Assembly: GCA_964510295.1 (NCBI GenBank)
Contig: CAZEBQ010000003.1
Span: 1-51,990 of the forward strand
DNA from: an uncultured Anaerolineales bacterium
Lineage (GTDB): Bacteria; Planctomycetota; Phycisphaerae; FEN-1346
DNA length: 51,990 bases
Direction: 5' to 3'
The stretch's first letter is position 1; the number at the start of each line of letters is the position of its first letter. Of this stretch, positions 6,693 to 26,007 are shown piece after piece. The notes beneath the pieces are model-generated. The model saw nothing but the letters and a program-made list of their open reading frames with translations, made no database searches and was not told where the DNA came from. Made by a program: the position numbers and the translations under genes.

Positions 6693-6722
6693 GACGCGTG
6701 TCCTTAGGCGGTCAGGCGGACG

Positions 6723-8945: not shown

Positions 8946-9653
8946 GTGCGATATGCAACTGTAGTGCTTGGCCTGGTCGTCGGCCTGGCTTGTCCGCTCC
9001 GGGCAGCAGAGCGTCCGACACAGGTTGCCCGCATGTCCATGCCCGACCGGGTGTACATGATCCTTCGCCGCAGCATCGAGGCCTACCCATTCGATGGCCG
9101 ATTGAAAGCCGAGCATCGGGAGAAGAACCTGGCCGCCCTCGAGCGGCTGCGCGAGGGGCCCTGGCTCGATCTGGGAAAACTCCAACGCGTGCGGGTGTAC
9201 TACCACTCAAATCTATATAACAAGGACTGCACCGCGACCGTGTGGCGTGTGCCCCTGCCCGCCAGTCGCAGGCCGACTCACTTCAGAGCGAACGTAGCCT
9301 CCCGCAGATCAGCCGTGAACGTATCGGGCGGGAATCGGAGGCTCGCCGTGAAGGTTCCTTTGAGGTCGGGCGGCACGGTCCATTCCATCGGTTCATTCCA
9401 CAGGCACGTCCGCTTGAGTTCCGTGAGCACCTTGCCGGTGGAGTCGGAGATAGCGATCGTGACCGTCGGATACCAGTACGGTCCCCGGACACTTGTGAAG
9501 AGGAGCTCGGGCCGTCGTACGGCTGGGCCGAGACGTCCTTGCCGTCGTCCGACACCGCAACGTTCCACAGCCGTCCGTCCACCAGGGCCGGGTGCCCATA
9601 GAACGCCTCGGCCAGTTGGCTGCGCCCGCCCCTGGCGGGATCGATCTGGATGA
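8946..9653 (+). CDS. Possible small secreted protein, 3-prime end unreliable
   Basis: A GTG 8946 start gives VRYATVVLGLVVGLACPLRAAE (signal-like), then protein-like sequence up to ...YYHSNLYNKDCTATVWRV. Beyond about 9250 the frame runs antisense through the pseudogene with R/S/P-rich junk and no stop until 9653. Confidence 0.2.
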   Translation: MRYATVVLGLVVGLACPLRAAERPTQVARMSMPDRVYMILRRSIEAYPFDGRLKAEHREKNLAALERLREGPWLDLGKLQRVRVYYHSNLYNKDCTATVWRVPLPASRRPTHFRANVASRRSAVNVSGGNRRLAVKVPLRSGGTVHSIGSFHRHVRLSSVSTLPVESEIAIVTVGYQYGPRTLVKRSSGRRTAGPRRPCRRPTPQRSTAVRPPGPGAHRTPRPVGCARPWRDRSG

Positions 9654-10069
9654 AGTCGCAGTACTGGGGCATAGTCAGACGTTCCTTCTCGAACACCGGT
9701 TTGCTGTGGTCGTTGACCCGAAGGTTGGCATTGCAGTCATGGAGCCTGACCGTGTGGAGTTTGTCGCCGAACTGGCAGCGGCCCTGCGCGCACAGGCGGA
9801 TGACGATCTTGAACGACCGCGTCGGCGTTCTCCCCCCTGTCTCGCACCCCCTCCGCCTCAACGACGAACTTCAGTTCGCCGGCATGGTCACCCGGCCCGC
9901 AGTAGCCGTACAAGAGCGTGGCGATCTGCCTGCTGCGACCGGGCGCACTGTCAACAAGAGTGACGCGCCGCCGCCTGTTCTTCTTGTCAAGGAGCGCCTC
10001 GAACGTGAAGTGCAGGCTCACTATCAGCCATGCTCCCACAGCCAGCCTCACCATTGGCCGCGTCTTCAC
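9278..10069 (-). pseudogene. Frameshifted stand-alone copy of the C-terminal module of the giant paralogs
   Basis: Three minus-strand frames join into one homolog: 10069..~9840 (MKTRPMVRLAVGAWLIVSL signal-like), 9861..~9540 (CAQGRCQFGDKLHTVRLHD ... YGHPALVDGRLWNVAVSDDGKDVSAQP) and 9568..9278 (WTVPPDLKGTFTASLRFPPDTF). These match CAVGECRFGDKTYKVRFYD ... YGHPVLVDGRWWDVHVSADGRQVTAEP ... WRIPPGFRGTYTATVEFPSDTF of 10135..14493. Confidence 0.65.
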
Positions 10070-10134: not shown

Positions 10135-13100
10135 TCAGCGAACCGTGACTCTCGCCGGCTTGACCTCGACGGGGAACGTGTCAGAGGGGAACTCGACCGT
10201 AGCGGTGTAGGTGCCCCTGAAGCCAGGTGGGATCCTCCAGCCCCGGTCGTCGGCTTCGTACCGCGAAGCCTCGAAGGTCATCGCCCGTTGGCCGGACTGC
10301 GCGGACAGGGCGATCTTGACCAACACGTTGGACGAAGGCTCCCGGTCGCGGAAACTCCGGACGTACACGCCTCGTCCGCCGATGTCGTTGAGGTCGATGC
10401 TGAAGTGAAGCGATCCTTCCTTCTGTGTAACCGTCATCGTACCGCGCAGCGGCGATCCCAACTGAATGGCCGTGGTCGTGCCGGCTTTCAGATTGAACGT
10501 GGGGAGGCCCACACGGGAAATCACCCGGTCGGAGATCTCCACCCTGGCGGAGATGCGGCTCGGGGCGGATGAGACGTACTCATAGTAAGTATCAAGCCGG
10601 TACCGTCCGGCGGGAACCGGCACCGGCCCCTCGCCGCCTTGCACGTTCAGCAGGACTCCGTCGCCCATCAGATCCATCCGCCAGAAGGGATGGTCGAGCC
10701 TGACGTAGGCCATCGGTCCTGCGCACGGCTCAGCGGTCACCTGACGGCCATCGGCGGACACGTGGACGTCCCACCACCGCCCATCGACCAGGACGGGGTG
10801 TCCGTACAGGGACCGGGGCATGCGTTCTCTGTTGATGCGCCACAGGCGGCCGTCGTACCGGATCGGCTCGCCCTGGACGTTCGTGAACCATCTGAGCCCG
10901 TCGGCATCTTCGTGGACGTCGACGCAGAACCAGTCAACCCAGGCGTCTTTGGCAAGGCGATCGCCTTCCCGTCGAAGACGGGCGGGATCGCAGACGCTCA
11001 GGTTGCCCGAGTAGTCGTAGAAACGGACCTTGTAGGTCTTGTCGCCGAAACGGCACTCGCCCACCGCACACGTAGAGAACTTGCAGCCCAACTCGGTGGC
11101 CGAGCCCAAGGCGGCCCCTTCCTCGTAATCGATGATGATACCGGCAGCCATTTTCCGCTCGCCGATGGTGATGTCGGAGACATCGGCCACGAACTCGTAT
11201 TCGAACACTTTCTGCCCGGACCTGCGCGAGCGGGGAGCGAAGTAGATCCGAGGAATCCGAAGGGCGTTGCGAAAATCGCCCTTTCCAGTGAGGTCGAGGC
11301 GGACGACGTCATAGTGTTGGGCATCGGGCTTCTCGGCGTCAAGAGCGAGGGCCATCTTCCGGCCGCCCACATCCATTGTGACCACCCGAGCCTTGGGATG
11401 GACCGTGCCGCAGCCCGGCCGAGCAGGCCGGAAGTGCTGGCTCCCTTTCAGCGAGGATCGCCTTCCACGGAATGCGTACACATAGGTGAGCGTGCCCACG
11501 GGGGCCTTCGAGGCGGAGGGGGGTTTCCAGTATTCGGCGATTGCGTGGAAAGGCTTCCCGATCGCCTTCCAGCCGAGGCCGACATCAGGTGCGATTTTGT
11601 CTGCGAACTCCTGCTTCTTGGTGGGGGCCTCCTTCTCCTTTCGGTAGGCAAGTGGCGGCAGCGGGTTACGGTACTGCCGGAGTGGGTTCAGGTCCGGGCC
11701 GCGCAGCAGGTACGGTCCGCAGCGCTCACGCGGCCACCACGCGTCGCTCCCCTCACTGAGGGCGGCCACCAGATAGCCCCATCGCGGGTGGTACGTGGCA
11801 GAAACCGATCCCGGCAGGAGTCCCCACACACGTCCGGCCACTCGCCACTCGCCGTTCTCGCCGGGCTCACACAGACCCACGCCCCACCTGTCAACGAGAC
11901 CGAACCCCAGCAACAGTGGTCCCGACTTGTCTTCGAAGGCGAACAGACTGGCGCTGGGGAACTCGCCATCGAGTCCGAACTTGCCCAGCAGCCTCCTCTC
12001 AGACCACGTATGCAGATCACCGCTCGTCCACCCATGCAGCTCGTACGCGTGGGGAACCATCTCCTGCGCATAGGTCTCCCCCTTCTTCCGGACAAGGCGG
12101 TAGCAGTGGAATCTGCCGGTCCGGTCCTGCATCAGCACGGGACCGGGCAGCGTCTCAATCGCCCAGCGGTGCATGTCCGAACTGACCAGCGCTCTGTGCC
12201 CCTTGGCAGCGTCGCAGACAAGAATCAGGCGACCGCGATCATCTCGCAACAAGTCGTAGCGGTCGCGGACGCTCTCATCAACGATGAGCGCGGGCCGGCT
12301 CCAATGAATGAAGTCCCTCGACCAGCAGACGTACGGCAGGTTCCGGTGCTGCCCGTCGCGGTCAGAAAGGAACGTCAGAACGAAGCGTCCGCTCTCGTGG
12401 CGCACCAGCCGTGGCGCGAACTCGTTCCACCCGCTGGAGACGGGGAGGCCGAGTTTGCGCGGCGAGGAGAAACGCTTCCCGTCGGTGTTTTCCGATGACC
12501 AGAGGTCGCCCCGGAAGGACCAGACGAGCCGCAGCGCCTCCTCATCGGCCTGGATGGCCGGGCGGCCCGTCCGTCGGCTCCAAAGACTGGGGTCGGGAGC
12601 GGGGCGCGCAGCGGGCACCAAGGCCGACGTCCACGACGCCCACGGACTACCTTCCACCCAGGGCAGGCGACCCAGGACCGGCGTCGTCTGGCCCGATCGG
12701 ACGGTCACGGTCATCGACGACCCGCCGTATGGCGTTCCCGAGCCGACGGGAACGAAGCGCACCTCGTGCGTCCCGGGCGAAAGCGGGCCGACCTGACCGG
12801 GATACCATCGCATCAGGGCGCCGTCCACGTACAAGCAGAAGTCCGACGTGTTCTGACACGAGACGTCGAGCGTGCCGGGGTTCTGCATCCGGGCCAGGGT
12901 GGGCTTGACCGTGATGCCCTTGACGTGAATCGGCCCGCTCTTCGGGTCGTTGACCGCAAAGCGGCACTCGGCAACAAGTATGCCAAGGCGCGGCGGCGCG
13001 GCGAAACGGATGCCCTTGCTGCAGGCGTCGGGGAAGGGGGCACGCTCCGGCGGTCCGTAGCCTCTGGGGCCCCTCCCGTTGTCTGGACGGCGGAGTTTGA

Positions 13101-14493
13101 TCTCCAGATATCCATCCTTGCCCTCACCCGACGCCGTGAAATGCAGCGACGTGAACACGTACCCGCTGGGGGCTCTCAGCCCCATGGAGAGCACCGCCGA
13201 CGATACATCGAACACCGCGGTCCGATCGTGCCCGGACGCCTCTTTGCCGATGAGGCGACGGGGCGCCGTCCGCACCGTGACCGCACTGCCCTTCTCGTCG
13301 AAGCGGAGCCAGGGCGCCTTGCCTTGCTCGTCTCCCAGGATAGCCGACAGATCTCCAACGACACTCCGTTCGACGATCTTGAACGGCGCCATCTTTCCCG
13401 TCTTCTGGTGGTACGCCATCAGGTTGACGAGGCCGTACGGGTACTTGCAACCCCGCTCGACCTCTGGGAACCAACGTGTTCCGCCACTGAGCAAGGGGCC
13501 ACTCGTCCGGACGACTTCCTCGTGGCGGCCGATTTGGGTCAGCAGGTGAATCCGTTTGTATCGGAACCAGTCGTCGCTGCGCAGGTCACCGAAGTGGCCC
13601 CATGAGCGCCCCTGCCAGATGGCGGCGTTGGGAAACCGCTTCGCCAGATCCGCATAAAGCAGCAGCAGTGCATCGGCCGGGGCGCCGGTGGACTCGTACG
13701 TGTGCACGTACTCGACCATGGCGTCGCCGAGGCGCGGGTGGGTTATGTCAAGGTACACGAACTGCTCGAGCGCGCGCCGGGCATGGGCGTACCGCCGCAT
13801 GAAGTAGTACATCTTCGCTACCCAGTACCGGGCCTCGACGTAATCGGGATCCTTGCGCGAGGCCTGGCGGAACTTGAGCCACGCCTCGCCGTAGCGGCCC
13901 TGGTCGTACAGGTCCATGCCCTCGTACAGCGCCTTGGCTGCCGGCAGGCTCCGCGTCCAGACAGGCAACGTCTTCAGGATCTGAGCCGGCGGCTGCTTTG
14001 AGAACCAACTCAGCAGTTCCGCCGACAGCCGGCGCTGCAGTTCCAACACATCCGACGCCTTGCCTGTGACCTCCTTCCGCGCCACCTCCGACCGGCTCTC
14101 CACGTCGACGATCTGGCCCGTGATGCGGATCTCGCCGCCCGTGACCGAGTAGACGCCCGTGACGAGGTGCTCGATCTTCAGTTGCTTCCGGACCTGCCCC
14201 ATCCGCCCGGCGTCGGTCGTGGCCATCTCGGGAACCCAGGCCATCTGGTGCGCGAGCGCCTGCATTCGGTCCCGTGCCACGACCGAAAGGCTCCGGCTCT
14301 GGGCGAAGTCCGTCGCGATCCGGTCCGCCAAGCCTTTCTCCAGCCACCGCCAGTCGGGCGTATCGGACTTCATCTGGAAGCTGAACACCGCCACGTTCGT
14401 GGCCGCTTGTGCAGGTGCTGACGGCCACCCTAGGGAGTAAGCCAGCGCGCCCAAGACCAGCCATGTCGCCGCCTGCCGCGATGTGCGTGCCAT
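10135..14493 (-). CDS. Giant secreted protein: CsgG/LpoB/TolB-N-like alpha/beta module + TPR + PEGA-like + Asp-box (BNR) beta-propeller + C-terminal module
   Basis: ATG 14493 with GAGGTG upstream (the ORF-track GTG is at 14502). Signal ..GWPSAPAQA|ATNV. Module NVAVFSFQMKSDTPDWRWLEKGLADRIATDF. TPR YDQGRYGEAWLKFRQASRKDPDYVEARYW. PEGA-like LDVSCQNTSDFCLYVDGA..GTHEVRFVP. Asp-box-like SSENTDGKRFS, WSRDFIHWS, SSDMHRWA, TSGDLHTWS. Confidence 0.85.
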   Translation of the reverse strand: MARTSRQAATWLVLGALAYSLGWPSAPAQAATNVAVFSFQMKSDTPDWRWLEKGLADRIATDFAQSRSLSVVARDRMQALAHQMAWVPEMATTDAGRMGQVRKQLKIEHLVTGVYSVTGGEIRITGQIVDVESRSEVARKEVTGKASDVLELQRRLSAELLSWFSKQPPAQILKTLPVWTRSLPAAKALYEGMDLYDQGRYGEAWLKFRQASRKDPDYVEARYWVAKMYYFMRRYAHARRALEQFVYLDITHPRLGDAMVEYVHTYESTGAPADALLLLYADLAKRFPNAAIWQGRSWGHFGDLRSDDWFRYKRIHLLTQIGRHEEVVRTSGPLLSGGTRWFPEVERGCKYPYGLVNLMAYHQKTGKMAPFKIVERSVVGDLSAILGDEQGKAPWLRFDEKGSAVTVRTAPRRLIGKEASGHDRTAVFDVSSAVLSMGLRAPSGYVFTSLHFTASGEGKDGYLEIKLRRPDNGRGPRGYGPPERAPFPDACSKGIRFAAPPRLGILVAECRFAVNDPKSGPIHVKGITVKPTLARMQNPGTLDVSCQNTSDFCLYVDGALMRWYPGQVGPLSPGTHEVRFVPVGSGTPYGGSSMTVTVRSGQTTPVLGRLPWVEGSPWASWTSALVPAARPAPDPSLWSRRTGRPAIQADEEALRLVWSFRGDLWSSENTDGKRFSSPRKLGLPVSSGWNEFAPRLVRHESGRFVLTFLSDRDGQHRNLPYVCWSRDFIHWSRPALIVDESVRDRYDLLRDDRGRLILVCDAAKGHRALVSSDMHRWAIETLPGPVLMQDRTGRFHCYRLVRKKGETYAQEMVPHAYELHGWTSGDLHTWSERRLLGKFGLDGEFPSASLFAFEDKSGPLLLGFGLVDRWGVGLCEPGENGEWRVAGRVWGLLPGSVSATYHPRWGYLVAALSEGSDAWWPRERCGPYLLRGPDLNPLRQYRNPLPPLAYRKEKEAPTKKQEFADKIAPDVGLGWKAIGKPFHAIAEYWKPPSASKAPVGTLTYVYAFRGRRSSLKGSQHFRPARPGCGTVHPKARVVTMDVGGRKMALALDAEKPDAQHYDVVRLDLTGKGDFRNALRIPRIYFAPRSRRSGQKVFEYEFVADVSDITIGERKMAAGIIIDYEEGAALGSATELGCKFSTCAVGECRFGDKTYKVRFYDYSGNLSVCDPARLRREGDRLAKDAWVDWFCVDVHEDADGLRWFTNVQGEPIRYDGRLWRINRERMPRSLYGHPVLVDGRWWDVHVSADGRQVTAEPCAGPMAYVRLDHPFWRMDLMGDGVLLNVQGGEGPVPVPAGRYRLDTYYEYVSSAPSRISARVEISDRVISRVGLPTFNLKAGTTTAIQLGSPLRGTMTVTQKEGSLHFSIDLNDIGGRGVYVRSFRDREPSSNVLVKIALSAQSGQRAMTFEASRYEADDRGWRIPPGFRGTYTATVEFPSDTFPVEVKPARVTVR
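13851..13989 (-). repeat. Near-identical tract shared with 18219..18357 (paralog gene-conversion tract)
   Basis: A direct base-by-base comparison shows a single mismatch (g/c at offset 46) over 139 nt. Similarity continues with scattered mismatches to about 14166 / 18534. Confidence 0.85.
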
Positions 14494-14520
14494 CCGTTCC
14501 ACCTCTGCGAAGCGACTACC

Positions 14521-17500
14521 TCAGTGAATCGTGAACGTTACGGGATCGGGCTCGGTGGGAAAGTTGCCAGGAAACTCGAGGGTGACCGTGTAGGTGCCCC
14601 TGAATCCGGGCGGGATCTTCCAGCCCCGATTTTTTAACTCGTAGTAGTTCGTTGCCTCGAAGGTGCCTGCCTGCCGGCCGGAGGGGTCTGTCAAGACAAC
14701 CCGGATGGGAGCCCTGTTGTGGAGAATGTGCCGTGCGTGCGCCTTCCATCCGGCCACATCGGTGACGTCAATTTTGAAAAGAAGCGCCCCCGATTTCTGG
14801 GTGACTCTTGCCCTCGCGCGAATGGGTGAACCCAGTTGGACCCGCGTGGTCGTTCCGGCTTTCAGATCAAGCGTCATCCGCTCGCGATGGAGGTCTTGCT
14901 CGGAGCCGGCATTGACCTCCAACACGTCCGATGTGAAGTCCGGGTCAGGTGCAAGGTACTCCTTGAAGAAATAGACCTTGTACTGGCCGGCAGGGACAGG
15001 CACGGGTTCCTTGCCCCCCTGAACCCACAGAAGAGAGTCTTCGCCGAACAGTGTGATCTTCCAGAAGGGGTGCTCAAGTTGAATCCAGGCCATAGGCCGT
15101 GTGCAGGGCTCGGCCGAGACGCGGCAGCCGTCGTCGGAGACGCGAACGTCCCACCATCTGCCGTCGACCAGGACAGGCTGGGAGTAGATCGCCCGGGGGA
15201 TGCGTTCACGGTTAATCGCCCACAACCTGCCGTCGCTCCGAATAAGGTCGCGCCGGACATTGGTGAACTTGAGGAGTTTGTTGCCATCGCCGTAGCAGTC
15301 TACGTAAAACGCGTCGAAGAAGGCGAACCACGGGCGTTCGGTATTGCGGGGATCCTCGGCATCCCGGACGCTCAGGTTGCCGCCCCGGTCGTAGAATCGG
15401 ACTTTGTACACCTTGTCGCCGAACCGGCACTCGGCCACTGCGCACGTGGAGAAACAATACCCCAATTCTGCGGACGAGCCCAGAGAGTCCCCCTCCTTGT
15501 ATTCGATGAAGACGCCGGCAGCAATCTGCCGCCCGCCGAATGACAGGGAAGGAAACCGCTCCGCAAACTGATACTTAAACTCCTTCTGCTGTGCTTTGGT
15601 GGTTTGGCGAGAGAGATAGATTCGAGGAATTCGGAGGGCATCGTGAAAATCACCCTTCCCGGTCAGGTCGAGGCGGATGACATCATAGAACGGGGCGTCG
15701 GCCTTATCGGCGTCCAGGGCAATCGACACGTTCTGGTCACCCACCCTCAACGTGACGACCCGGACCTGGGGATGGACGGTGCCGCAACCGGGCGACGGTT
15801 CGCCAAAGTGCTCGCTGCCTCTCAGCCAACGTCGCTTGCCATGAAACATAGGAACGTAGACAAGCGTCCCTTCGGGGGCCTTCGGGGCCGATGGGCAGGG
15901 CCAGGACTTGTGGATCTTCTGGTCGAGAGTCATCCCGACTATCTTGTCAAAGGAAGTACGACTCCGTTTGGCCGCGGCCCCGTATTCTTGGTAGGCAAGC
16001 GGGGGCAGCGGATTGCGGTATTCCCGGAGGGGGTTGAGGCCCGGGCCGCGCAGCACGTACGGACCGTCCAACTCCCTCGGCCAAAACACGTGGCCCCTGG
16101 CACCGACGGCGGCAATCAGGTAGCCCCACCGCGGGTGATACGCCGACCACGCGGGGCCGGGCACAACGCCCCACGTCAGGCCGGACAGCCGCCATTTGCC
16201 GCCGGCCTCCGGCTCGCACAGGCCCAGGCTCCACTTGTCGGCCTCGCCGTGCCCGAGGAGCACGGGTCCCTGCTCGCCCTGGAGGACGCTGATCCGCCCC
16301 TCCGGGACATCGCCCGGACAGTCACCCTCCAGGTCGAAGCGGGCCAGCACCCGCTTGGCCGACCAGCCGCCCCCGCCCTTGCCTCGAAAGCTGATCAACT
16401 GGCACCGAAACGGCGGCGGTGTGCCGTAGGGCACCTCCTTCTGCTTCTGGGCCTTCAGATCGTAGCACCAGAGCCGGCCGGTCCGGTCCTGGGTCACCAG
16501 CCGGCCCGGCATCGGCTTGGACTCCCACTGGTAGCCGTCGGAACTGATCAGCATCCGGTGCCCCTGGGCGGTCCGGCAACTGACGACCAGCCGGCCGCGG
16601 TCATCCGTAAAGAGGCCATACATGTCATACAGGCCCTCGTCGACCATCCGTGCCGGCGCGGTCCAGTGGACGAAGTCGCGCGACCAGCAGGCGTACGGCA
16701 GATTCCGGTGCTGCGCGTCGCGGTCCGACAGGAACACCAGGACGAACCGCCCACTCTCGTCCCGCGCGAGCGACGGAGCGAACTCGTTCCACCCGCTTGA
16801 GACCGGAAGGTCCAACTTCCGCGCCGGCGCGAACGTCGTGCCGTCGGTGCTAACGGAGGACCAGAGGTCCCCCCGGCACGGCCACACGAGGCGGATGGCC
16901 TTGTCGTCGACCTGGATGGCGGGCGGATCGTACATCCCGCGCTGCCACAGGCCGGGATCGACCGCCGGCACGGGCGTGCCGACGTACGCCGCGGTCCACG
17001 CGCTCCAGGGGTTCCCCTCGGCCCACGGCAGGTGGCCTTCCAGCCGAGCCGTCTCGCCCGCTTTGACGGTGACCGTCGTCGACCACTCGCCATATGGCGT
17101 TCCCGGACCGACGGGAACGAGGCGCACCTCGTGCGTCCCGGGCGCAAGGGGGCCCACCAGGCCGGGGTACCACCGCATCATGGCGCCGTCCACGTACACG
17201 CAGAAGTCCGACGTATTCCGACACGAGACGTCGAGCGTGCCGGGGTGGTCGATCCGGGCCAGGGTGGCCTCGACCCGGACGCCCTTAACGTGAATCGGCC
17301 CGCCCTCCGCGCCACTGACGGCAAAACGGCACCGGGCAATAAGCATGCCAAGGCGCGGCGGCGCCGTGAAACGGATGCCCTTGCTACAGGCGTCGGGGAA
17401 GGGGGCACGCTCCGCCGGCGTCCAGCCTCTGGCCTCCAACGTCTTGTTGTCGGGACGACGGAGTTTCATCTCCAGGTACCCGTCCTTGCCCTCACCCAAC

Positions 17501-18843
17501 GCCCTGAGATCCAGCGACGTGAACACGTACCCGCTGGGGGCTTCAAGCCCTAGAGAGAACGAAGCCCACGACACGTCGAACGCCGCGGTCCGGTCGCGAT
17601 TCATCGTCTCCACGCCGACGAGACGGCGGGGTACCGTCCGCACCGTGACGGCACTGCCCTTCTCGTCGAAACGGACCCAGGGCCTTTCGCCTTCTTCGAC
17701 TATCAGCCAGGTAACCTTCTCTGAAAGGACAATAACCTCGGACGGCCACCAGACCTCGTACGGCAGCATCTGACCCGTCCGGACGTGGTGGTCCATCAGG
17801 CTGACGACGCCGTATGAGACCGGGCAGCCCAACACGTGCTTCGGGGAGAGCTCGCCAAAGACAGGTCCCCACAGGTCGATAGCTTCCTGATTGCGGTGCA
17901 GTTGCTTCAGGACATGAATCCGTTTGTATCGGAACCAGTGATCGCTGCGCAGGGCGCCAGATTGGCCCCATGCGCGCCCCTGCCAAATGGCGGCGTTCGG
18001 GAACCGCCGGGCCATGTCGTCGTAGAGCGTCAGCAGCGCATCGGCCGGGGCACCCGTCGCTTCATACGTGTGGACGTACTCGACCATGGCGTCGCCCATC
18101 CGCGGATGCGCCGCGTCCAGGTACACGAACCGCTCGAGCGCCCGACGCGCATGCTCGTAGCGGTGCATGAAGTAGTACATCTTCCCCACCCAGTACTCCG
18201 CCTCGACGTAGGCCGGGTCCTTGCGCGAGGCCTGGCGGAACTTGAGCCACGCCTCGCCGTAGCGCCCCTGGTCGTACAGGTCCATGCCCTCGTACAGCGC
18301 CTTGGCTGCCGGCAGGCTCCGCGTCCAGACAGGCAACGTCTTCAGGATCTGAGCCGGTGGTTGCTTTGAGAACCAACTCAGCAACTCCGCCGACAGCCGG
18401 CGCTGCAGATCCAGCACATCCGACGCCTTGCCTGTGACTTCCTTGCGCGCCACCTCCGACCGGCTCTCGACGTCGACGACTTGGCCTGTGATGCGTATCT
18501 CTTCGCCCGTGACCGAGTAAACTCCCGTGACGAGTTGTGTGATCTTCAGCCCCCGCTTTATGTCTTTCATACGCCGGGGATCGGAGGTCGCCATCTCCGG
18601 GACCCAGTTCATCTTCTGGGCCACCATCTGCATCTCATCGCGGGCGACGACCGAGAGGCTGCGGTCCTGGACGAAGTCCGTCGCGATGCGGTCGGCCAAG
18701 CCCTTCTCCAGCCATCGCCAGTCGGGCGTGTCGGAGGTCATCTGGAAGTTGAAGACAGCCACGTTGGTGGCAGCCGAGGCGGAGGACAACAAGAGAGATG
18801 GAACGAGCAGGACGGCGGCGGCCGACAAGTGCAGGTGGCTCAT
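14521..18843 (-). CDS. Giant secreted protein, paralog of 10135..14493 (same five-part architecture)
   Basis: ORF 14521..19119 trimmed to ATG 18843 (GGAGGG upstream; MSHLHLSAAAVLLVPSLLLSSASA signal). This start overlaps the upstream stop as ATGA. It is collinear with the neighbouring paralog through the C-terminal WKIPPGFRGTYTVTLEFPGNF. Confidence 0.85.
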   Translation of the reverse strand: MSHLHLSAAAVLLVPSLLLSSASAATNVAVFNFQMTSDTPDWRWLEKGLADRIATDFVQDRSLSVVARDEMQMVAQKMNWVPEMATSDPRRMKDIKRGLKITQLVTGVYSVTGEEIRITGQVVDVESRSEVARKEVTGKASDVLDLQRRLSAELLSWFSKQPPAQILKTLPVWTRSLPAAKALYEGMDLYDQGRYGEAWLKFRQASRKDPAYVEAEYWVGKMYYFMHRYEHARRALERFVYLDAAHPRMGDAMVEYVHTYEATGAPADALLTLYDDMARRFPNAAIWQGRAWGQSGALRSDHWFRYKRIHVLKQLHRNQEAIDLWGPVFGELSPKHVLGCPVSYGVVSLMDHHVRTGQMLPYEVWWPSEVIVLSEKVTWLIVEEGERPWVRFDEKGSAVTVRTVPRRLVGVETMNRDRTAAFDVSWASFSLGLEAPSGYVFTSLDLRALGEGKDGYLEMKLRRPDNKTLEARGWTPAERAPFPDACSKGIRFTAPPRLGMLIARCRFAVSGAEGGPIHVKGVRVEATLARIDHPGTLDVSCRNTSDFCVYVDGAMMRWYPGLVGPLAPGTHEVRLVPVGPGTPYGEWSTTVTVKAGETARLEGHLPWAEGNPWSAWTAAYVGTPVPAVDPGLWQRGMYDPPAIQVDDKAIRLVWPCRGDLWSSVSTDGTTFAPARKLDLPVSSGWNEFAPSLARDESGRFVLVFLSDRDAQHRNLPYACWSRDFVHWTAPARMVDEGLYDMYGLFTDDRGRLVVSCRTAQGHRMLISSDGYQWESKPMPGRLVTQDRTGRLWCYDLKAQKQKEVPYGTPPPFRCQLISFRGKGGGGWSAKRVLARFDLEGDCPGDVPEGRISVLQGEQGPVLLGHGEADKWSLGLCEPEAGGKWRLSGLTWGVVPGPAWSAYHPRWGYLIAAVGARGHVFWPRELDGPYVLRGPGLNPLREYRNPLPPLAYQEYGAAAKRSRTSFDKIVGMTLDQKIHKSWPCPSAPKAPEGTLVYVPMFHGKRRWLRGSEHFGEPSPGCGTVHPQVRVVTLRVGDQNVSIALDADKADAPFYDVIRLDLTGKGDFHDALRIPRIYLSRQTTKAQQKEFKYQFAERFPSLSFGGRQIAAGVFIEYKEGDSLGSSAELGYCFSTCAVAECRFGDKVYKVRFYDRGGNLSVRDAEDPRNTERPWFAFFDAFYVDCYGDGNKLLKFTNVRRDLIRSDGRLWAINRERIPRAIYSQPVLVDGRWWDVRVSDDGCRVSAEPCTRPMAWIQLEHPFWKITLFGEDSLLWVQGGKEPVPVPAGQYKVYFFKEYLAPDPDFTSDVLEVNAGSEQDLHRERMTLDLKAGTTTRVQLGSPIRARARVTQKSGALLFKIDVTDVAGWKAHARHILHNRAPIRVVLTDPSGRQAGTFEATNYYELKNRGWKIPPGFRGTYTVTLEFPGNFPTEPDPVTFTIH
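18219..18357 (-). repeat. Near-identical tract shared with 13851..13989
   Basis: Partner of the tract above, covering the TPR segment (..KFRQASRKDP..YDQGRYGEAW..ALYEGMDLY..LPVWTRSLPAAK..). Confidence 0.85.
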
Positions 18844-21641
18844 TCCGGCTCGCCCTCCGCCTTGGTTGCGCCAGCGAAGAGAGGGTCGATGTCGGTGCTG
18901 CGGATGAGGTAGGGTCCCCACTCGTTCGCCTGGTTCTCCCAGCCCTTCCAGGAGGCCATGGACGCCAAAACGAAGCCCCACTTCGGGTGCCATGCCATCG
19001 CATCGAGGTCGTGCGTCACGCCGCTGTACCACGGCGATCGCTGCCACGAGCCGTCGGGCATCTCGCGGATCAGGAACAGCCTGCTGCGCATGCGGGCCTG
19101 CGGTGCCACGCAAACGCACAGGATGGTTCTCCCGTCGCGTTGCATGGGCGACAGGTAGATACTGCGGCCCTTGAGCGTACTGAGTTTCTCCTCCTTCGAC
19201 CAGGTGACGCCGTCCGTGCTGGTGAACCGGCGCAGCGGCCCCACCGGCTCCGGCGGCTTCTCGAACACCTCACGCCAGCGGTCTTTCGGACGGGTGGCGC
19301 AGAACAGTTCGTAGGTGTCGTCGTGCCGCACGTGGATGGCCAGACCGTTGATGCACTCCCCCGGTGACGTCACATCGACGCGGCCGAGCGGTTCCCAGCG
19401 GAATCCGTCGCGACTGACAAGGGTCCGCACCTCGCCTCCGTTTCCCTCGGCCTTGGAGTACGCAATCACGAACCGGCCGCGGCCATCCTGAATGAGATGG
19501 CGGATCGGCATGCCCACCTCGTCCGCGACCTCGGCCGGCGCGCTCCAGTGGACGAAATCGCGCGACCAGCAGGCGAACGGCCGGTAGACGTGCTGCGGGT
19601 TGCGGTCGGACTTGAAAACGACCATGAACCGTCCCGACTCGTCGCGGAGCAAGCGAGGCTCGCCTTCCAGCCACGCCGTGGAGACGGGCAATGGTAGGCG
19701 CGCAGGCGTGGAAAACGTCTGCCCGTCCGTGCTCATCGACGACCACAGGTCGCCGCCTCGGCTCCAGACGAGGCGGATCGCCTCATTGTCCATCTGGACG
19801 GCAGGAACGCCCTGAAAGCGACGGGCCAGGGCAAGGTCGTGTCCGTCGTAGCAGCTGCCAACCAGGACACCATCCGTCCACGACGACCAGGGGGTGTCTT
19901 GGCGCCACGGCAGGGTGCCTACGAAACGGATCGTCTCACCGGTCTTGACGAGCACACGGGCCGTCGCTTCGCCATGCAGCGCGCTGGGACCGTCCGGATA
20001 GAACCTCAGCGTGCGCGGGCCCGCCGGCAAGAGACCGATCAGGCCGGGCCCGCGCCGGCCGGGGCGGCCGTCCACATCGACGCGGAAATGCTCGGTATTC
20101 GAGCACGAGACGTCGATCGCGCCGAACCGCCGTGGCCGGTCAAACGTCGCCCTTACGCGCAGCCCATCGAGAAGCAGTTTCTCGTCTTTCACGGGCGCGT
20201 CGGGGGTCACCTTCACCATGACCTCGAAGAGCCCGCCCCGCGGCAGGTTACCGAAAGGGATGCCCTGCGTCTTGGCCTCGGCGATCGACACGGTCCGCTG
20301 TGCCACGTCCCCCGTGCCGTGGCTGGACGCATTGACGTCCTTGGCGAGGTCTACCTCGACCGTGCCGCGTTCGACGGCGATCTTCGGATGCAGCCGCATC
20401 GTCGTGAAGACGCTTCCGCTCGGGGCAATGATCCCGTAGTGCTCAACCGTGTACGGATACTCCTTGACTGCGCCCCCCAACGTTTGCCAGATAATCCTGG
20501 AGACGGCCTCGGTCTCGCCAGGCTTGAAGTGAACCACCTTGAACAGCGTGCTTCCCCAGCCCAGTCTCGGCAACTCTTTCGGGGCAAACGTCTCGCCCGT
20601 GAGGGCGTTGTGCCGTCGCAGGGCCAGGTCACAGTTGTAGTCCCCGGGCAGGTCTGGTCGCCCGGGCCCGGCAGACAGAAGCACCGCCTCGCGGTACCTC
20701 CCCATCTGCTCGAGCAGGAGTCCGGTCTTTTGGCCGAACCACGCTCCACTCCACCAGGGCACCCTCCCGCCGTCCCATAAGAAGCCCGGCACCTCCGGGA
20801 AGCGACGGTTGAAGTCCTTGTACAAGGCCAGGAGGGCTTCTTGCGGCGTGTCGAGTTTCTCGTAGGTGTGCAGGAACTCCATGACGGCGTCGCCGACTCG
20901 CGGGTGAGCGCTGTCGAGGTAGACAAACTGCTCAAACGCCCGCCGCGCGTGCTCGTAGCGGTCCATGAAGTAGTACATCTTGCCGACCCAGTACGTCGCC
21001 TCCAGGTAGTCCGGATCCTCCCGCGACGCCTGACGGAACTTGACCCATGCCTCGCCGTAGCGGCCCTGGTCGTACAGGTCCATGCCTTCGTACAGGGCAC
21101 GCGCAGCCGGGATGCTCTTCGTCCAGACGGGGAGCGCCTTGAGCACCTCTTGCGACGTCTTGCCCGTGAACAGGGCAACCATGTCGGCGCTCAAGCGCCG
21201 CGTCAGTTCGAGGGCTTCGGCGGCCTTCCCGGAGACCGTGCAGCGGCCGCGCTCCTCGCCCGTCTTCACCTGCACGGCCGTCCCTGTGATGGAGATCTTC
21301 TCGCCCGTGACCTGGAACACGCCGGAGGCCACGTACTTGATGCGGAGCGTGTTTCGAACCATTCCCATGCGCCCGGTGTCCGCCATCATCTCGGGCACCC
21401 ACTCCATCTTCGCCGCCAGATCCTGCATGGCGTCGCGTTTGATGACGTCCAGCGAGCGCTCGATGTGAAAGTCGGTGATGATCCGATCTGCCAGCCCCTT
21501 TTCGAGCCACTTCCACTCGGGCGTGTCGGAGGTCATCTGGAAGTTGAAGACAGCCACGTTTGTGGCACAAGGCGCCGGCGGTGGCGCCAACAAGGGCCCG
21601 GCAGCCGCGACCACCAGGGCGGCGAGTTGCGAACCCTTCAT
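18840..21641 (-). CDS. Secreted paralog lacking the C-terminal module (alpha/beta module + TPR + PEGA-like + Asp-box propeller)
   Basis: ORF 18840..21869 trimmed to ATG 21641 (AGGAGG upstream; MKGSQLAALVVAAAGPLLAPPPAPCATNV). Motifs NVAVFNFQMTSDTPEWKWLEKGLADRIITDF, STDGQTFS, WSRDFVHWS, SRDGFRWE, STDGVTWS. Confidence 0.85.
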   Translation of the reverse strand: MKGSQLAALVVAAAGPLLAPPPAPCATNVAVFNFQMTSDTPEWKWLEKGLADRIITDFHIERSLDVIKRDAMQDLAAKMEWVPEMMADTGRMGMVRNTLRIKYVASGVFQVTGEKISITGTAVQVKTGEERGRCTVSGKAAEALELTRRLSADMVALFTGKTSQEVLKALPVWTKSIPAARALYEGMDLYDQGRYGEAWVKFRQASREDPDYLEATYWVGKMYYFMDRYEHARRAFEQFVYLDSAHPRVGDAVMEFLHTYEKLDTPQEALLALYKDFNRRFPEVPGFLWDGGRVPWWSGAWFGQKTGLLLEQMGRYREAVLLSAGPGRPDLPGDYNCDLALRRHNALTGETFAPKELPRLGWGSTLFKVVHFKPGETEAVSRIIWQTLGGAVKEYPYTVEHYGIIAPSGSVFTTMRLHPKIAVERGTVEVDLAKDVNASSHGTGDVAQRTVSIAEAKTQGIPFGNLPRGGLFEVMVKVTPDAPVKDEKLLLDGLRVRATFDRPRRFGAIDVSCSNTEHFRVDVDGRPGRRGPGLIGLLPAGPRTLRFYPDGPSALHGEATARVLVKTGETIRFVGTLPWRQDTPWSSWTDGVLVGSCYDGHDLALARRFQGVPAVQMDNEAIRLVWSRGGDLWSSMSTDGQTFSTPARLPLPVSTAWLEGEPRLLRDESGRFMVVFKSDRNPQHVYRPFACWSRDFVHWSAPAEVADEVGMPIRHLIQDGRGRFVIAYSKAEGNGGEVRTLVSRDGFRWEPLGRVDVTSPGECINGLAIHVRHDDTYELFCATRPKDRWREVFEKPPEPVGPLRRFTSTDGVTWSKEEKLSTLKGRSIYLSPMQRDGRTILCVCVAPQARMRSRLFLIREMPDGSWQRSPWYSGVTHDLDAMAWHPKWGFVLASMASWKGWENQANEWGPYLIRSTDIDPLFAGATKAEGEPE

Positions 21642-21696
21642 GTTTTCCTCCTGTGCAGCAACCAAGGGATCGCGCGTGCGATCTTCAGGTCGGCCG

Positions 21697-23982
21697 CTAC
21701 TGCCTCTTGGCCTTCTCCTTGGCGTCCAGGGCGGCGAGTTTTTCCCGGGCCGTCTTGGCGAACTCCGTGTCGGCGTACTCGGTGATGACGCGCCGGTATT
21801 CGCGGCGTGCGGCATCGGGTTTCCCGGCTTTCTCAAGCATCGCGCCCAGTTGAAGCGCATTGCGGGCAAGGAGGCGTTTCCGTTCGGCGGGGTCCTGCTG
21901 CTTCGGAGCGGGCTTGGCGATGGCCGGAGCGGCAGGCCGCTCCTTGGGTTTGGACGTCGTCGGGATCTTCGGACCGAGGCGTTCGGGGGAGGTCTGGGCG
22001 TCCTTGAGTTTCGCCTCGTTCAGAAGCTTCCCCATTGCGGCGGCCCGCTCCGAGTCTGGGCGCCGCGCCACGTACTTCTCCCACTCGATGACCGCGTGGG
22101 CGTGTTCGCCCAGGCGCTGGTGACACATGCCCTGCCAGAAATGGGCCTCCGTGTAGTCTGGGTCCAGATCCATCGTCCTCATGAACTGCATAATGGCTGC
22201 ATCCATGTTGCCGGCGTAGTAATGGCTCAAGGCCTTGGCGAAGTGGAGGCTGGCGACCGGTGACTTATCGATCTCGGTCAGGTCGATCTCAGGCAGCGGC
22301 ACGGCCATCTGCGTGCTCATCTTGCGGGCCAGTTGAAGGGCCGTCTCCATCATGTCCACCGGCCGGAACGACACCTGGTCGGCCGCCACCACGCGATCGG
22401 TGGGAATGTCGATCGCCTGAAGGCTGACGGTGAGCTTGTCCTGTACCAGAAAGAGCCGACCGGTCAGGACAGTGTCGGCCTTGAGGAGCTTTCCTGCCGC
22501 CACCGCATACTTCTGGCCCGTCAGGCCTTTCAGCGACTTGGCCTGTTCGTCGGTCAGCGCAAGCAGCCGCTGCCGCTCCACAACGGTGACGTTCTCATGC
22601 CGGGCCAGGAGGACGGCCACCAGGTCTCCCAACCCCGCGGCAGCGGGGTCGTACTGCTCCTCGCCGGTCTCGTTTTCAAGAGGCACGGCAAAGACGGTGC
22701 GTTTGACGGGTTTCTGCTGCCCTGCCGGTGCCGCAGCCGAGTCGGATGTCTTTGGCGTCTCGGCGGCAGGCGAGTCCTGGAGCGGCGCGGCAAAGACGCG
22801 GACGACCGTGCTCGCCGGTTCGTGCGGCGTGGCTTTCGTGTTCCCGCCGGCAGGTTGCCTGAGAGGCATCTTCTCAGCGGCGGGCTTCTTCTTGCCATAA
22901 GTGACCAGGCGCCGACAGACGGCCAGGCCAAGTTTGCGGCCCGCCTTCTGGAGGGCGGTCTTTCCGGCCGTCACCTCGTTCAGGTCCACCGCACGCTGGG
23001 TGGCCCGGTCGGCTACAAGTATCCGGCCCGTGTGCCGGTCGATCGCGTTGATCTCCGCCCGGCCCGTGCACGTGACCAGATCACCCGTACGGAGGGCGAA
23101 CTCGCTGAAGGCCTCTCCGACGACGATCACGTCGGCCTCGCGGACGGCCGCCGGCCATGGAGCGCGCTCGCCCTTCATCAGTCTCTTGGCCCAGTCGGCG
23201 AGGTCGTTCCTGCCGGTGTCCACAACGGTGAATCCGCACGCCACAAGGGTGCGTTTGATCTCGGTCTCAACCGACGGGTCCACAACGATGCGCAGGATGT
23301 GCATCTCGGGAACGATCACGGCCACCGTGGGGGGGGCGCGATCGCCGAGGGCCTTGCGGATCTCGGCCACCGGGTCAGGCATCCGCGCCGTGTCGGGGAG
23401 CAGGTTCGGTCCCTGTTTGCGGATGAGTTCGGCCACGTCCTCCGACATCTTGAAGATGGCCTCCGACATATTCTTCGTGGGCTCGACTTTGCTGATGTTG
23501 CCCTTGACGCGGCCGGTCTCGACGCCAACCACCTTGGTCACAAAGATGAGGTGCTTGTCCATGGTGAAGGTCTTGCCGATGATCATGATCTGGGCGCCGA
23601 GGAGTTTGCCGACCTGGACGGCCTTTTCCTGGTCGGCAAGGCCGGTGAGTTTCAGTTTCTGTTCCTGGAGGATCTTGTCGAGTTTTGCCCGTTCGACCAA
23701 CTCGAACTCCTCCTCCACGCTCAGACGCACGGTCAGAAGGTCGGCAATCTGCTGGCCGAGGTCCCTGTTCTTGTACGTGCCCGTTTCGTAGTTGAGAATG
23801 GCCACCACCGGCAGGGACTTCCTGGCGGCGGGCCCCTCGGACGGGACGGGTGCCGCCTTCTTGGCAGTCTCCCCCGGCGGAGTCGCCGGCACGCCCTTGA
23901 GGACGTCAGCCTCGCACGTGCTCGTTGCAGTTGCGGCCAAGATGACAAGTGCTGCGGTCACGACATTGAGTCTGAGCCACAT
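21697..23982 (-). CDS. Secreted or lipoprotein-like protein with three CsgG/FlgO-LPP20-like alpha/beta modules and C-terminal TPR repeats
   Basis: ATG 23982 with AAGGAG upstream. Signal ending ATATSTC. Module 1 is VVAILNYETG..LGQQIADLL..FELVERAKLDKILQEQKL..GAQIMIIG..VVGVETGRV. Module 3 is VFAVPLENETG..VTVVERQRLLALTDEQ. TPR is YAGNMDAAIMQFMRTMDLDPDYTEAHFWQGMCH. Confidence 0.8.
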   Translation of the reverse strand: MWLRLNVVTAALVILAATATSTCEADVLKGVPATPPGETAKKAAPVPSEGPAARKSLPVVAILNYETGTYKNRDLGQQIADLLTVRLSVEEEFELVERAKLDKILQEQKLKLTGLADQEKAVQVGKLLGAQIMIIGKTFTMDKHLIFVTKVVGVETGRVKGNISKVEPTKNMSEAIFKMSEDVAELIRKQGPNLLPDTARMPDPVAEIRKALGDRAPPTVAVIVPEMHILRIVVDPSVETEIKRTLVACGFTVVDTGRNDLADWAKRLMKGERAPWPAAVREADVIVVGEAFSEFALRTGDLVTCTGRAEINAIDRHTGRILVADRATQRAVDLNEVTAGKTALQKAGRKLGLAVCRRLVTYGKKKPAAEKMPLRQPAGGNTKATPHEPASTVVRVFAAPLQDSPAAETPKTSDSAAAPAGQQKPVKRTVFAVPLENETGEEQYDPAAAGLGDLVAVLLARHENVTVVERQRLLALTDEQAKSLKGLTGQKYAVAAGKLLKADTVLTGRLFLVQDKLTVSLQAIDIPTDRVVAADQVSFRPVDMMETALQLARKMSTQMAVPLPEIDLTEIDKSPVASLHFAKALSHYYAGNMDAAIMQFMRTMDLDPDYTEAHFWQGMCHQRLGEHAHAVIEWEKYVARRPDSERAAAMGKLLNEAKLKDAQTSPERLGPKIPTTSKPKERPAAPAIAKPAPKQQDPAERKRLLARNALQLGAMLEKAGKPDAARREYRRVITEYADTEFAKTAREKLAALDAKEKAKRQ

Positions 23983-25049
23983 TGCCAGTCTCCTTTATTC
24001 CCTGTTTTTCTGTTGCCCGTGCCATGCTCTCGAACAGCCCAAAGAAGCAGTTCGCCGAGGATGCTCCGTCCGACGGCGTCCGTAGCGGGGTCCTCCGCCC
24101 GCGGAAGCATCGTCACGACCAGCCATCCCTCACCCACACGCCGCGCGCCCACGAGCGTATGCACGACGGTCTTACGGGACGCGGGTGCGTCCTGCTGAAC
24201 GTTCTCCTGCTCAATCCACGCCAAGGGTACAACATCGGCCCCCGTCCGGAGAGCGTACGACCAGGGCCCGTTGCCCAGGTCGTCCGGCCGGAGGATTTGC
24301 CGGAAACCCATCGCCAGACGGGCCGGACCGGAGAGCGGGTCCGCGAACGTGTTGCGGCAGAATCCCCAGGCCTCCCATTTGGGCGGCGGGTTGAGCACCA
24401 CGAGCGTCATGCCCCTCTTCAAACGGCCCTCCAGGCCGCGGCACGCACCGGCCAGACTCCCGGCTCGCCGGTGGCCGGCAAGGATGGCCACGTCGCCGCC
24501 GAAGATGAGTTTCTGGATGTCGGTTTCCAATCGGTCAAAAGCCACCTTCTCGGATTCCAGGGCAGTCTGCAACCTGCCGGTCGGATCCGCCGCCGCAAGC
24601 GCCAGGTCGGCCAACCGCCCGGCGGCCGGAGCCAACAACGACGAGGGGAAGACCTCTACCTCCTTCGCCTCGGAACCGGCAGGAACGCGGACCAGCAGCC
24701 GACAGACCGTCCGCGTCCGGACCTTCGGAACCACAAGCCGAAGCCGACCGTGTCCCCCCGCGTCGATCCGGACTGCGCCATGAGCCAGAACGTCGTCGCC
24801 GTAGGCAAACGCCCACACGGCCTCCTGGTTGGCTTCGGCGGTCACGTGCACAGCCAGGACCGTCCGGGCGAAGACACGCAGTCGGGCGCCACGCGCCCGG
24901 ACGCCGGAGTCGGAAAGATCTACGAAAACGGCGACGTCCGCGCGGGCGCCGGGTTCGAGTTCGGCACCGCTCGCGCCGCGCGCCGGGGTGACCGCTAGGC
25001 TCAGCAACGTCCCCAGCAACGCTGCGTTTCGAGGGCTCACCCGCCCCAT
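23958..25049 (-). CDS. Secreted hypothetical protein
   Basis: ORF 23958..25112. ATG 25049 gives MGRVSPRNAALLGTLLSLAVTPARGA (signal-like). I recognised no domain. The 3-prime end overlaps the next gene's start by 25 nt. Confidence 0.6.
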   Translation of the reverse strand: MGRVSPRNAALLGTLLSLAVTPARGASGAELEPGARADVAVFVDLSDSGVRARGARLRVFARTVLAVHVTAEANQEAVWAFAYGDDVLAHGAVRIDAGGHGRLRLVVPKVRTRTVCRLLVRVPAGSEAKEVEVFPSSLLAPAAGRLADLALAAADPTGRLQTALESEKVAFDRLETDIQKLIFGGDVAILAGHRRAGSLAGACRGLEGRLKRGMTLVVLNPPPKWEAWGFCRNTFADPLSGPARLAMGFRQILRPDDLGNGPWSYALRTGADVVPLAWIEQENVQQDAPASRKTVVHTLVGARRVGEGWLVVTMLPRAEDPATDAVGRSILGELLLWAVREHGTGNRKTGNKGDWQCGSDSMS

Positions 25050-25086: not shown

Positions 25087-26007
25087 TCAGCCGATGGCCC
25101 TGCCAAGCCCAACCGCCTGAAAAACGACGTGCACCCGGTCTCCCTCCATGCGGAACTGGCCCAATTCCACGGGCCCTTCGCCAGTCATCACGCGTCCTTT
25201 CACCCCAGCGGTGCTAGCCGGTTCGGTGCCGACCATCACGGCGACCGTCGCGCACGCATTCGCGGCGGCCACCTCACAGTGAATCGGACGGCCCTTGAGA
25301 CGACCGACATCAGGCAGCGACAGGCGGGTGCGACCGCCGCTTGGCACGAGCACGTTGAACGTCTCCAGGATGCGTCCCGTTGCCGTCACCATCCGGCATC
25401 TCAGAAGGAGCAGTTCGGCGCCGGCACTGGTGCCGTCGGCTGTGGGCACGTAGCCGAACTGACCCACCCCCTCGCCCAGCAGCACCCACGGTCTCGATCG
25501 GGCCGGTCCCTCGCCCACGTGCTGCCAGATCTGGCGATAGGAGGCCATCTCTGCCGCCGAGACCTGCGGCATACTCAGCGTCTGCTCCATCCTGGCCAGT
25601 TTCTCTTCGATTCTCCGGCCGGTCCACACAGCCGCCACGGCGACAAACACCGACGCCAGTACCACGACGGCCGCCGCCGCCCGTAACACCCACCAGGCAC
25701 GCCGCCGGCGTCGAGAGGTCTCGACGCCATGCCCGGCAATCCGGTCAGCTGCGGGCAACGATCCTGCGGCAGGGACCGACGACAGGATCGATGCCATCGA
25801 CGCGCGGAGCACCGTAACGGCTTCGTCATGACCGCAAGCGGCCCGCGCCTGCGTCTGAGTCTGGATCATCTCACGCAGGAGCCCGCGGGCTTCGTCGTCG
25901 CGCGAGACGAGCGCCAGCAGGGCGCGCCGCTCATCCGAGTCCGGCTCATCACACAAAAGGGCGTGAAGCCGTTCTTCCAGGTCCAACCGGGCATCGTCGT
26001 CCATCAT
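25087..26007 (-). CDS. Membrane anti-sigma factor
   Basis: Its position immediately after the ECF sigma gene, with an ATGA overlap. It has an acidic N-terminal helix (LEERLHALLCDEPDSDERRALL), a single TM segment (WWVLRAAAAVVVLASVFVAVAAVW) and an extracytoplasmic C-terminal domain. Confidence 0.7.
   Translation of the reverse strand: MMDDDARLDLEERLHALLCDEPDSDERRALLALVSRDDEARGLLREMIQTQTQARAACGHDEAVTVLRASMASILSSVPAAGSLPAADRIAGHGVETSRRRRRAWWVLRAAAAVVVLASVFVAVAAVWTGRRIEEKLARMEQTLSMPQVSAAEMASYRQIWQHVGEGPARSRPWVLLGEGVGQFGYVPTADGTSAGAELLLLRCRMVTATGRILETFNVLVPSGGRTRLSLPDVGRLKGRPIHCEVAAANACATVAVMVGTEPASTAGVKGRVMTGEGPVELGQFRMEGDRVHVVFQAVGLGRAIG

Follow-up and report, generated by a model that had tools for sequence, protein, structure and literature searches.

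A conserved cassette in uncultured Planctomycetota joins an extracytoplasmic function sigma factor to giant exported proteins with predicted TolB-N/CsgG-like modules and BNR-type propellers

TolB is an exported soluble protein in which an N-terminal alpha/beta domain is followed, further along the chain, by a beta-propeller, and the fold of that domain is also found in CsgG, PelC, LpoB, FlgO/FlgT and GNA1162. Many structural relatives of this module in the PDB form rings or bind partners in the envelope, among them the PelC dodecamer, CsgG, the LPHT ring and TolB with Pal; another, a protein with a FlgO domain, was deposited with 58 chains. The module also occurs with tetratricopeptide repeats (TPRs) in the extracytoplasmic "TolB-like + TPR" regions of Ser/Thr kinases, and Asp-box propellers are present in glycoside hydrolase (GH) family GH33 sialidases such as PG_0352 and the A. 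terreus KDNase. PorE (PG1058), an envelope scaffold of type IX secretion, combines TPRs, a beta-propeller and a carboxypeptidase-regulatory-like sandwich; being a lipoprotein, it ends in an OmpA-type part that binds peptidoglycan, and it lacks a TolB-N module. Here we analyse a stretch of 51,990 nucleotides (the window; positions 1 to 51,990 of contig CAZEBQ010000003.1, assembly GCA_964510295.1), deposited as an uncultured Anaerolineales bacterium and placed by GTDB in the Planctomycetota (Phycisphaerae; FEN-1346). It carries a minus-strand cassette in which the gene of an extracytoplasmic function (ECF) sigma factor is followed by those of an anti-sigma-like membrane protein, two exported proteins (E and D) and three giant paralogs (C, B and A). 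The architecture and the gene cluster, made from known folds, are new, and the sigma-factor context had been missed by an earlier note on the same DNA; full-text literature searches returned no paper describing the giant family or the cassette. The domain logic of PorE resembles that of the giants, and no type IX secretion genes were found here.

The four adjacent open reading frames (ORFs) to which the earlier note drew attention were confirmed, all on the minus strand: giant A (10135-14493; long form, 1452 aa; ORF call, homology and models), giant B (14521-18843; long form, 1440 aa), giant C (18840-21641; short form, 933 aa) and protein D (21697-23982; 761 aa). The same products are present in a public protein collection (P0001, 1452 aa; P0004, 1440 aa; P0053, 933 aa; and P0121, 761 aa). 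Giant A is 61% identical to B and 43% identical to C. The N-terminal motif previously quoted for the three giants, ATNVAVF(S/N)FQM(K/T)SDTP(D/E)W(R/K)WLEKGLADRI, matches exactly in each of them, straight after the signal peptide (A 31-59, B 25-53, C 26-54), and the TPRs said to follow it were likewise found, with Pfam TPR matches at about residues 185-245 of A, B and C. Giant C comprises the signal peptide, the N-terminal module (N-module), the TPRs, a middle region, a PEGA-like domain and a BNR propeller, and has no counterpart of the C-terminal extension with which A and B end, which measures ~510 residues and had been put at about 400 aa.

The N-module of A occupies residues 31-172 (13978-14403, minus strand). 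An AlphaFold2 model of residues 30-172, built from a 59-sequence alignment, reached a predicted local distance difference test (pLDDT) score of 92.7 and a predicted template modelling (pTM) score of 0.87, with the elements in the order beta-alpha-beta-alpha-alpha-beta-beta-beta-alpha. In a Foldseek comparison of this model with the PDB, TolB N-terminal domains were the leading matches (4r40, 2w8b, 2hqs and 1crz; E-values of 2e-7 to 5e-6, query template modelling score, TMq, of 0.64-0.69), followed by GNA1162, LpoB, PelC, the LPHT ring, FlgT, CsgG and HpaA. The giants' N-module is thus predicted to have the TolB-N/LpoB/PelC/CsgG/FlgO fold, as the earlier note had supposed. Sequence searches barely recognise it, and structure prediction was therefore needed to place it. 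The best Pfam match of the A module was FlgO (E-value 0.005; 17.2 bits, cut-off 22.6); full-length B scored 13.4 bits against the same FlgO model (PF17680; cut-off 22.6); and NCBIfam TIGR02800 (TolB) matched A 28-158 with an E-value of 0.0075 and 15 bits, the cut-off being 343. A 59-sequence profile of the module retrieved from the PDB sequences only a FlgO-domain protein (E-value 0.89), and a profile of the whole family retrieved weak TPR and sialidase matches only. Among 51 family members, 15 matched Pfam FlgO at an E-value of 0.01 or lower, one matched TolB_N and one CsgG (E-value 0.0077). The FlgO or CsgG cut-offs are passed by some giants (P0063, P0208, P0220, P0226 and P0228), for instance that of FlgO by P0063 (31.2 bits) and P0208 (26.0 bits) and that of CsgG by P0226 and P0228 (35-37 bits); A, B and C themselves stay below the CsgG cut-off.

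All the structural proteins of the cassette have Sec signal peptides and none has a conserved lipobox cysteine. Lipoprotein status of the giants and D, considered as a candidate, was rejected because no conserved cysteine follows the signal peptides, and the proteins are predicted from their sequences to be soluble proteins of the periplasm or envelope. No C-terminal sorting tags were evident.

Protein D consists of a signal peptide, three modules and a TPR region (Pfam CsgG, E-value 4e-18; LpoB, 4.6e-7; and TPRs). Module 1 (residues 56-195; 23398-23817, minus strand) is CsgG/LpoB-like (49.7 bits with Pfam CsgG, cut-off 20.8; 22.6 bits with LpoB, cut-off 22.3) and module 3 (residues 421-567; 22282-22722, minus strand) is CsgG/FlgO-like (28.2 bits with CsgG). 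The CsgG matches span only positions 10-98 of the 210 in the profile (about 10-106 if the relatives are included), meaning that the barrel-forming part is never matched. Module 2 (residues ~203-366; 22885-23376, minus strand) is strongly conserved across an alignment of 19 loci, with many invariant residues, and its link to module 3 is weak (hhalign, 34%, E-value 4e-4). The suggestion that D stacks three related modules therefore holds for modules 1 and 3, both above the CsgG cut-off, but not securely for module 2. The TPR region (residues ~575-750; 21733-22260, minus strand) matches TPR_2, TPR_6 and TPR_16 above the Pfam cut-offs.

A module common to D and the giants, also anticipated previously, was recovered by two methods. 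The profile of the giants' N-module aligned with module 1 (hhalign, 93%, E-value 3e-7) and module 3 (94.8%, E-value 5e-8) of D, and by tblastn A 25-246 aligned with D 417-638 (27% identity over 235 residues, E-value 4e-12), indicating that the common unit is the module plus the TPRs behind it. The same unit is met outside the cassette: A 26-270 aligns with the post-kinase region of 20 Ser/Thr kinases (E-values of 1e-11 to 1e-15, 23-28% identity, ~200-320 residues), and the unit matches NCBIfam TIGR04510, a putative peptide-modification-system cyclase (E-value 6e-7). To judge from these alignments, the module+TPR unit is a widespread extracytoplasmic unit. The giants and D differ from the kinases and from TIGR04510 in having no kinase, cyclase or transmembrane part, and in the giants the unit is fused instead to sandwich domains and a propeller.

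The TPR region of A (residues ~173-300; 13594-13977, minus strand; Pfam TPR matches) is the best-conserved part of the family. The remainder of the protein was modelled as residues 290-1452 (pLDDT 89.3, pTM 0.80). Along the chain, the model shows helices continuing the TPRs (~290-400), a beta-sandwich (~405-535), a 7-strand sandwich (540-608), a propeller of ~22 strands (646-940), a low-confidence helical linker and three beta-rich domains. By model secondary structure, the middle region (12658-13593, minus strand) comprises a helical part (~301-400), the beta-sandwich (~405-535) and the PEGA-like 7-strand sandwich (539-612); in all, the N-module and the propeller are ~470 residues apart, with the TPRs, the helical part, the beta-sandwich and the PEGA-like domain in between. 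The string LDVSC.NT..F..VDG, on which a PEGA-like domain had been proposed, is present in the three giants (A 542-559, B 537-554, C 509-526) and the modelled sandwich is compatible with such a domain, but the Pfam PEGA cut-off was not reached: PEGA (PF08308) matched only B (residues 549-606; E-value 3.5e-3; 17.6 bits, cut-off 20.8), one of the 51 members, and there was one CarboxypepD_reg match in the same set. "PEGA-like" is consequently a description at the level of the fold only. Searching the large model against viral structures with Foldseek gave generic propeller and sandwich matches only.

The propeller of A (residues 646-940; 11674-12558, minus strand) has about six blades and is of the BNR/Asp-box type according to Foldseek, profile searches and Asp-box counts. 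The Asp-box pattern as literally written in the earlier note, S.D.G..(F/W)S, has zero matches, the real motif being one residue shorter: S.D[GFML]..[WF] occurs three to four times per giant, compared with ~0.2 times in shuffled sequences. The nearest fold match of the propeller is the P. gingivalis sialidase (E-values of 3e-11 to 9e-10, 13-14% identity, target template modelling score, TMt, of 0.45), with an alignment to PG_0352 of ~560 columns that exceeds the propeller alone; then come a fungal KDNase (TMt 0.55) and trans-sialidase, followed by propeller lectins, GH43, GH32, GH130 and GH145. A propeller-only profile matched sialidases in the PDB (E-value 2e-4) and NEU2 (3.5e-3), these matches being single Asp-box blades out of register (profile 135-209 with NEU2 68-150), and no global alignment of the propeller to any sialidase was obtained. 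Pfam BNR_2 matched 11/51 members and was above its cut-off in the relative P0041, and PD40 was not listed in any Pfam scan of the giant family. The propeller is a divergent member of the BNR/Asp-box type and not of the PD40 type of TolB. The polar residues conserved in at least 95% of the sequences are all located in the first two blades (R655, D663, E691, R703, R712, Y721, S725, R726 and D727), and the later blades keep the Asp-box and structural positions together with a HPRWGY motif (67-98%).

The C-terminal extension of A (residues 941-1452; 10138-11673, minus strand), a linker with three beta-rich domains, is restricted to the long forms and present in 39/94 family members. An outer-membrane barrel was considered for this region and rejected: it has only about five long strands, is charged, contains cysteines and lacks a C-terminal aromatic residue, and no outer-membrane protein was among the top 50 fold matches. 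Other C-terminal modules take its place in relatives, such as CBM9 (P0059), ankyrin (P0096, P0098) and HEAT (P0228). Conservation is unevenly distributed along the giants. The N-module and the TPRs are the conserved parts (mean top-residue frequencies of 0.65 and 0.73; identities among A, B and C of 83/56/55% in the N-module and 88/72/73% in the TPRs), and the middle region, the propeller and the C-terminus vary (0.34-0.47), identities among A, B and C being low in the middle part. Across loci, D is more conserved (32 members, 48-82% identity) than the giants (~30-60%).

In a rough neighbour-joining tree of the paralogs, A groups with B among the long forms, the two having split before the orthologs P0002 and P0003 separated from them, and C stands apart in a clade of short forms. 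The lineage of C is old, and A/B arose by a later duplication within the long-form lineage, so that the array joins old paralog lineages and is not the product of one recent triplication. The earlier note was right that the three genes are true paralogs; the single tandem event that it also suggested does not fit the separate clade of C or the remains of a fourth copy downstream of A. These remains (9281-9861, minus strand) are a decayed, frameshifted relic of a fourth giant's C-terminal extension, 36% identical to A 1142-1262 (blastp, E-value 1e-19), with a second piece that matches A 1392-1452 in another frame (tblastn).

Upstream of D, the cassette begins with the ECF sigma factor gene (26004-26621, minus strand; Pfam Sigma70_r2, 50 bits; Sigma70_r4_2, 55 bits), directly followed by that of a 306-aa anti-sigma-like membrane protein (25087-26007, minus strand) with a hydrophobic span at ~104-128 and then a periplasmic C-terminal domain. 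The next gene encodes protein E (23958-25049, minus strand; 363 aa, signal peptide), which is kept in the cassette, its partners elsewhere being 30-85% identical in alignments. The stop of the sigma gene overlaps the start of the anti-sigma gene, as does the stop of C the start of B; terminators inside the region show no excess, the sigma-70/terminator scan being at chance level. The overlaps and the lack of a terminator excess fit a single operon.

A synteny survey by tblastn over 36 fetched loci, which include contigs from other samples, revealed a recurring order, with one to four giants behind the genes of ECF sigma, anti-sigma, E and D, in ~16 loci (L001, L002/23, L003/4, L007-9, L012-17, L020-22 and L027). 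Anti-sigma homologs stand in the same position elsewhere with 29-85% identity. L005/6 has only a short CsgG+TPR protein ahead of two giants; L015 has a lone giant and then a full cassette; L016 has four tandem giants; and in L008 ~3.7 kb (4520-8192) lie between modules 2 and 3 of D, possibly an insertion. The cassette is restricted to uncultured Planctomycetota; a search of one representative genome per species gave 30 loci from metagenome-assembled genomes (MAGs), the labels of which are mostly Phycisphaerae or Planctomycetota. The giant family forms ~100 clusters at 90% identity, and a propeller-profile search among 1.84 billion proteins yielded 105 representatives at E-values of 1e-30 or lower. 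A more distant tier (P0208-P0242; propeller E-values of 1e-38 to 1e-23) keeps the same layout, with an N-terminal CsgG/FlgO module, TPRs and a propeller that spans residues ~640-1000 (HEAT repeats form the C-terminus of one member), indicating that the architecture is broader than the ~100 close members. P0013 (1197 aa, on a 5.8-kb contig) runs directly from an ECF sigma domain into giant-like sequence that corresponds to 67% of A; although probably fused in gene calling or assembly, it again links the sigma factor to the giant family.

The surroundings of the cassette in the window were also inspected. Just upstream of the sigma gene lies a cut-off phage-integrase ORF (26743-27207, plus strand), and in L001, an unrelated locus, a complete integrase gene (15395-16660) comes after the giants; the cassette might reside on, or beside, mobile DNA. 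No tRNA was found in the window. Downstream, the genes o1, o2 and o3 (112-4524, 4467-6692 and 6723-8600, minus strand) share a repeated domain of ~200 aa (o1 929-1136, o2 351-732, o3 212-625); o1 is a 1470-aa trypsin-like peptidase with a NPCBM domain, and o2 and o3 also have a common N-terminal region (51% identity). In the annotated loci L001-L006 the cassette is found without these genes. On the other side (27377-51990, minus strand), a GH123 glycoside hydrolase gene (27377-29647) precedes further genes for large exported proteins on the same strand, a neighbourhood not seen in the other annotated loci.

We tentatively favour, at somewhat less than an even chance, an ECF-controlled scaffold of the periplasm or envelope in which a constant docking unit carries variable binding heads. 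The module+TPR unit of ~250 residues, present in D and in every giant, would be the constant docking part, and would let the giants assemble with D, which as the conserved hub has two or three modules, into a single hetero-oligomer of the envelope. The less conserved parts, namely the beta-sandwich and PEGA-like sandwich of the middle region, the divergent BNR propeller and a C-terminal module that can be exchanged (here a beta-sandwich array), would serve as working heads that bind glycan or protein ligands, and the ECF sigma/anti-sigma pair would switch on the whole set upon an envelope signal. We infer complex formation from the shared unit, from the habit of its structural relatives to form rings or bind partners, and from the fact that divergent paralogs stably occur together; the retention of old paralog lineages side by side in a single operon was also counted for the scaffold. 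The rings that several of the relatives form beneath the outer membrane hint at a way in which D and the giants might come together. A bolder version, a new hetero-oligomeric ring or lattice of D and the giants under the Phycisphaerae outer membrane, with exchangeable propeller, carbohydrate-binding module (CBM), ankyrin or HEAT heads and its own ECF switch, serving for example polysaccharide capture or handling in the periplasm, seems improbable. Several observations weigh against the scaffold. Giants without sigma, E or D nearby occur in L018, L028, L029, L031 and L033, so a giant need not have the cassette in cis; the 30 genome loci are all from uncultured MAGs, with no cultured host among them; the Pfam search with the anti-sigma factor gave no match, leaving its periplasmic domain without a family; protein E had no match in the Pfam or PDB-sequence searches, and module 2 of D none in the Pfam or PDB searches; and a simple search upstream of 17 sigma genes found neither an ECF-type promoter (GGAAC-N15-18-CGT) nor shared 7-mers. 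Finally, the tight block of 95-100% conserved Arg, Asp, Glu and Tyr residues at A 655-735 could be a catalytic or substrate site and not a docking surface.

The giants might also be read as periplasmic or surface glycoside hydrolases, sialidase-like or of a new BNR-propeller family, in which the other domains would tether or target the enzyme and the several copies would cover different glycans. The nearest folds being GH33 sialidases and KDNase (E-values of 3e-11 to 2e-7) and then GH43, GH32, GH130 and GH145, the BNR_2 matches, the invariant residues, the CBM9 of one relative and the richness of the rest of the window in glycan-degrading genes, GH123 among them, all point this way. We nevertheless consider it unlikely: the active site of GH33 enzymes requires residues from several blades, whereas the residues conserved in at least 95% of the giants are confined to the first two; the sialidase similarity is one of single blades out of register, with an E-value of 2e-4 at best, and of folds at 13-14% identity and TMt of 0.45-0.55, and the propeller, as the earlier note had implied, does not by sequence resemble that of a standard GH33 enzyme; and where loci are annotated, the window's glycan-degrading genes do not recur as neighbours of the cassette. 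A GH33 catalytic set (Arg triad, Tyr/Glu nucleophile pair, Asp acid/base and FRIP motif) was not demonstrated in the propeller, which may have a different active or binding site. Alternatively, D and the giants could be periplasmic ligand sensors that act on the anti-sigma factor and release the ECF sigma factor, as in cell-surface signalling. The sigma/anti-sigma pair is nearly always attached, many kinases have the module+TPR unit as their extracytoplasmic part, the unit resembles part of TIGR04510, and the anti-sigma factor's periplasmic domain and E are both specific to the cassette. It is, however, rare for sensors to measure 900-1450 aa, and rare for them to come as one to four copies whose C-terminal modules are swapped, some giants have no sigma gene nearby, and the genes co-transcribed in most ECF systems form the regulon rather than the sensor, which makes such a device quite unlikely.

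TolB is the closest structural match of the N-module, and the giants could in principle be TolB paralogs or functional replacements that help to maintain the envelope together with Pal, TolA and peptidoglycan, a very improbable reading; their membership of the TolB family is largely refuted. Besides the structural matches and the weak TIGR02800 match, YbgF/CpoB-like TPR matches and the Joint Genome Institute (JGI) label "TolB-like protein" on many family members speak for a relationship, but the scores are far under the family cut-offs (15 against 343 bits for TolB, 28-34 against 90 bits for YbgF), the propeller is of the BNR type, ~470 residues are inserted before it, and the mature N-terminus begins 1-3 residues ahead of strand 1, leaving no room for a TolA-box. 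The genes form an ECF operon and not a tol-pal one, no tol-pal genes being annotated beside the cassette in the annotated loci, and the "TolB plan" invoked by the earlier note is a loose analogy only. From CsgG, PelC, LpoB, FlgO/FlgT and GNA1162, with which they share the module fold (modules 1 and 3 of D passing the CsgG cut-off), D and the giants differ in having no conserved lipobox cysteine and in the unmatched barrel part of CsgG; curli (csg), pel and flagellar genes were not annotated beside the cassette in the annotated loci. The cassette proteins are neither TolB nor CsgG.

The envelope of the Planctomycetota is unusual and its protein machinery poorly known. The cassette adds to it a well-defined, conserved and unnamed set of at least five envelope proteins made from recognisable parts, in which the predicted TolB-N/CsgG module with its TPRs appears as a portable unit, used in kinases, in the multi-module hub D and in the multi-domain giants. 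Should these proteins belong to a single complex, they would make up a new assembly of the envelope under a dedicated regulator; a catalytic propeller would represent a new glycosidase family. Under either reading, the cassette offers concrete targets for structural and biochemical work.

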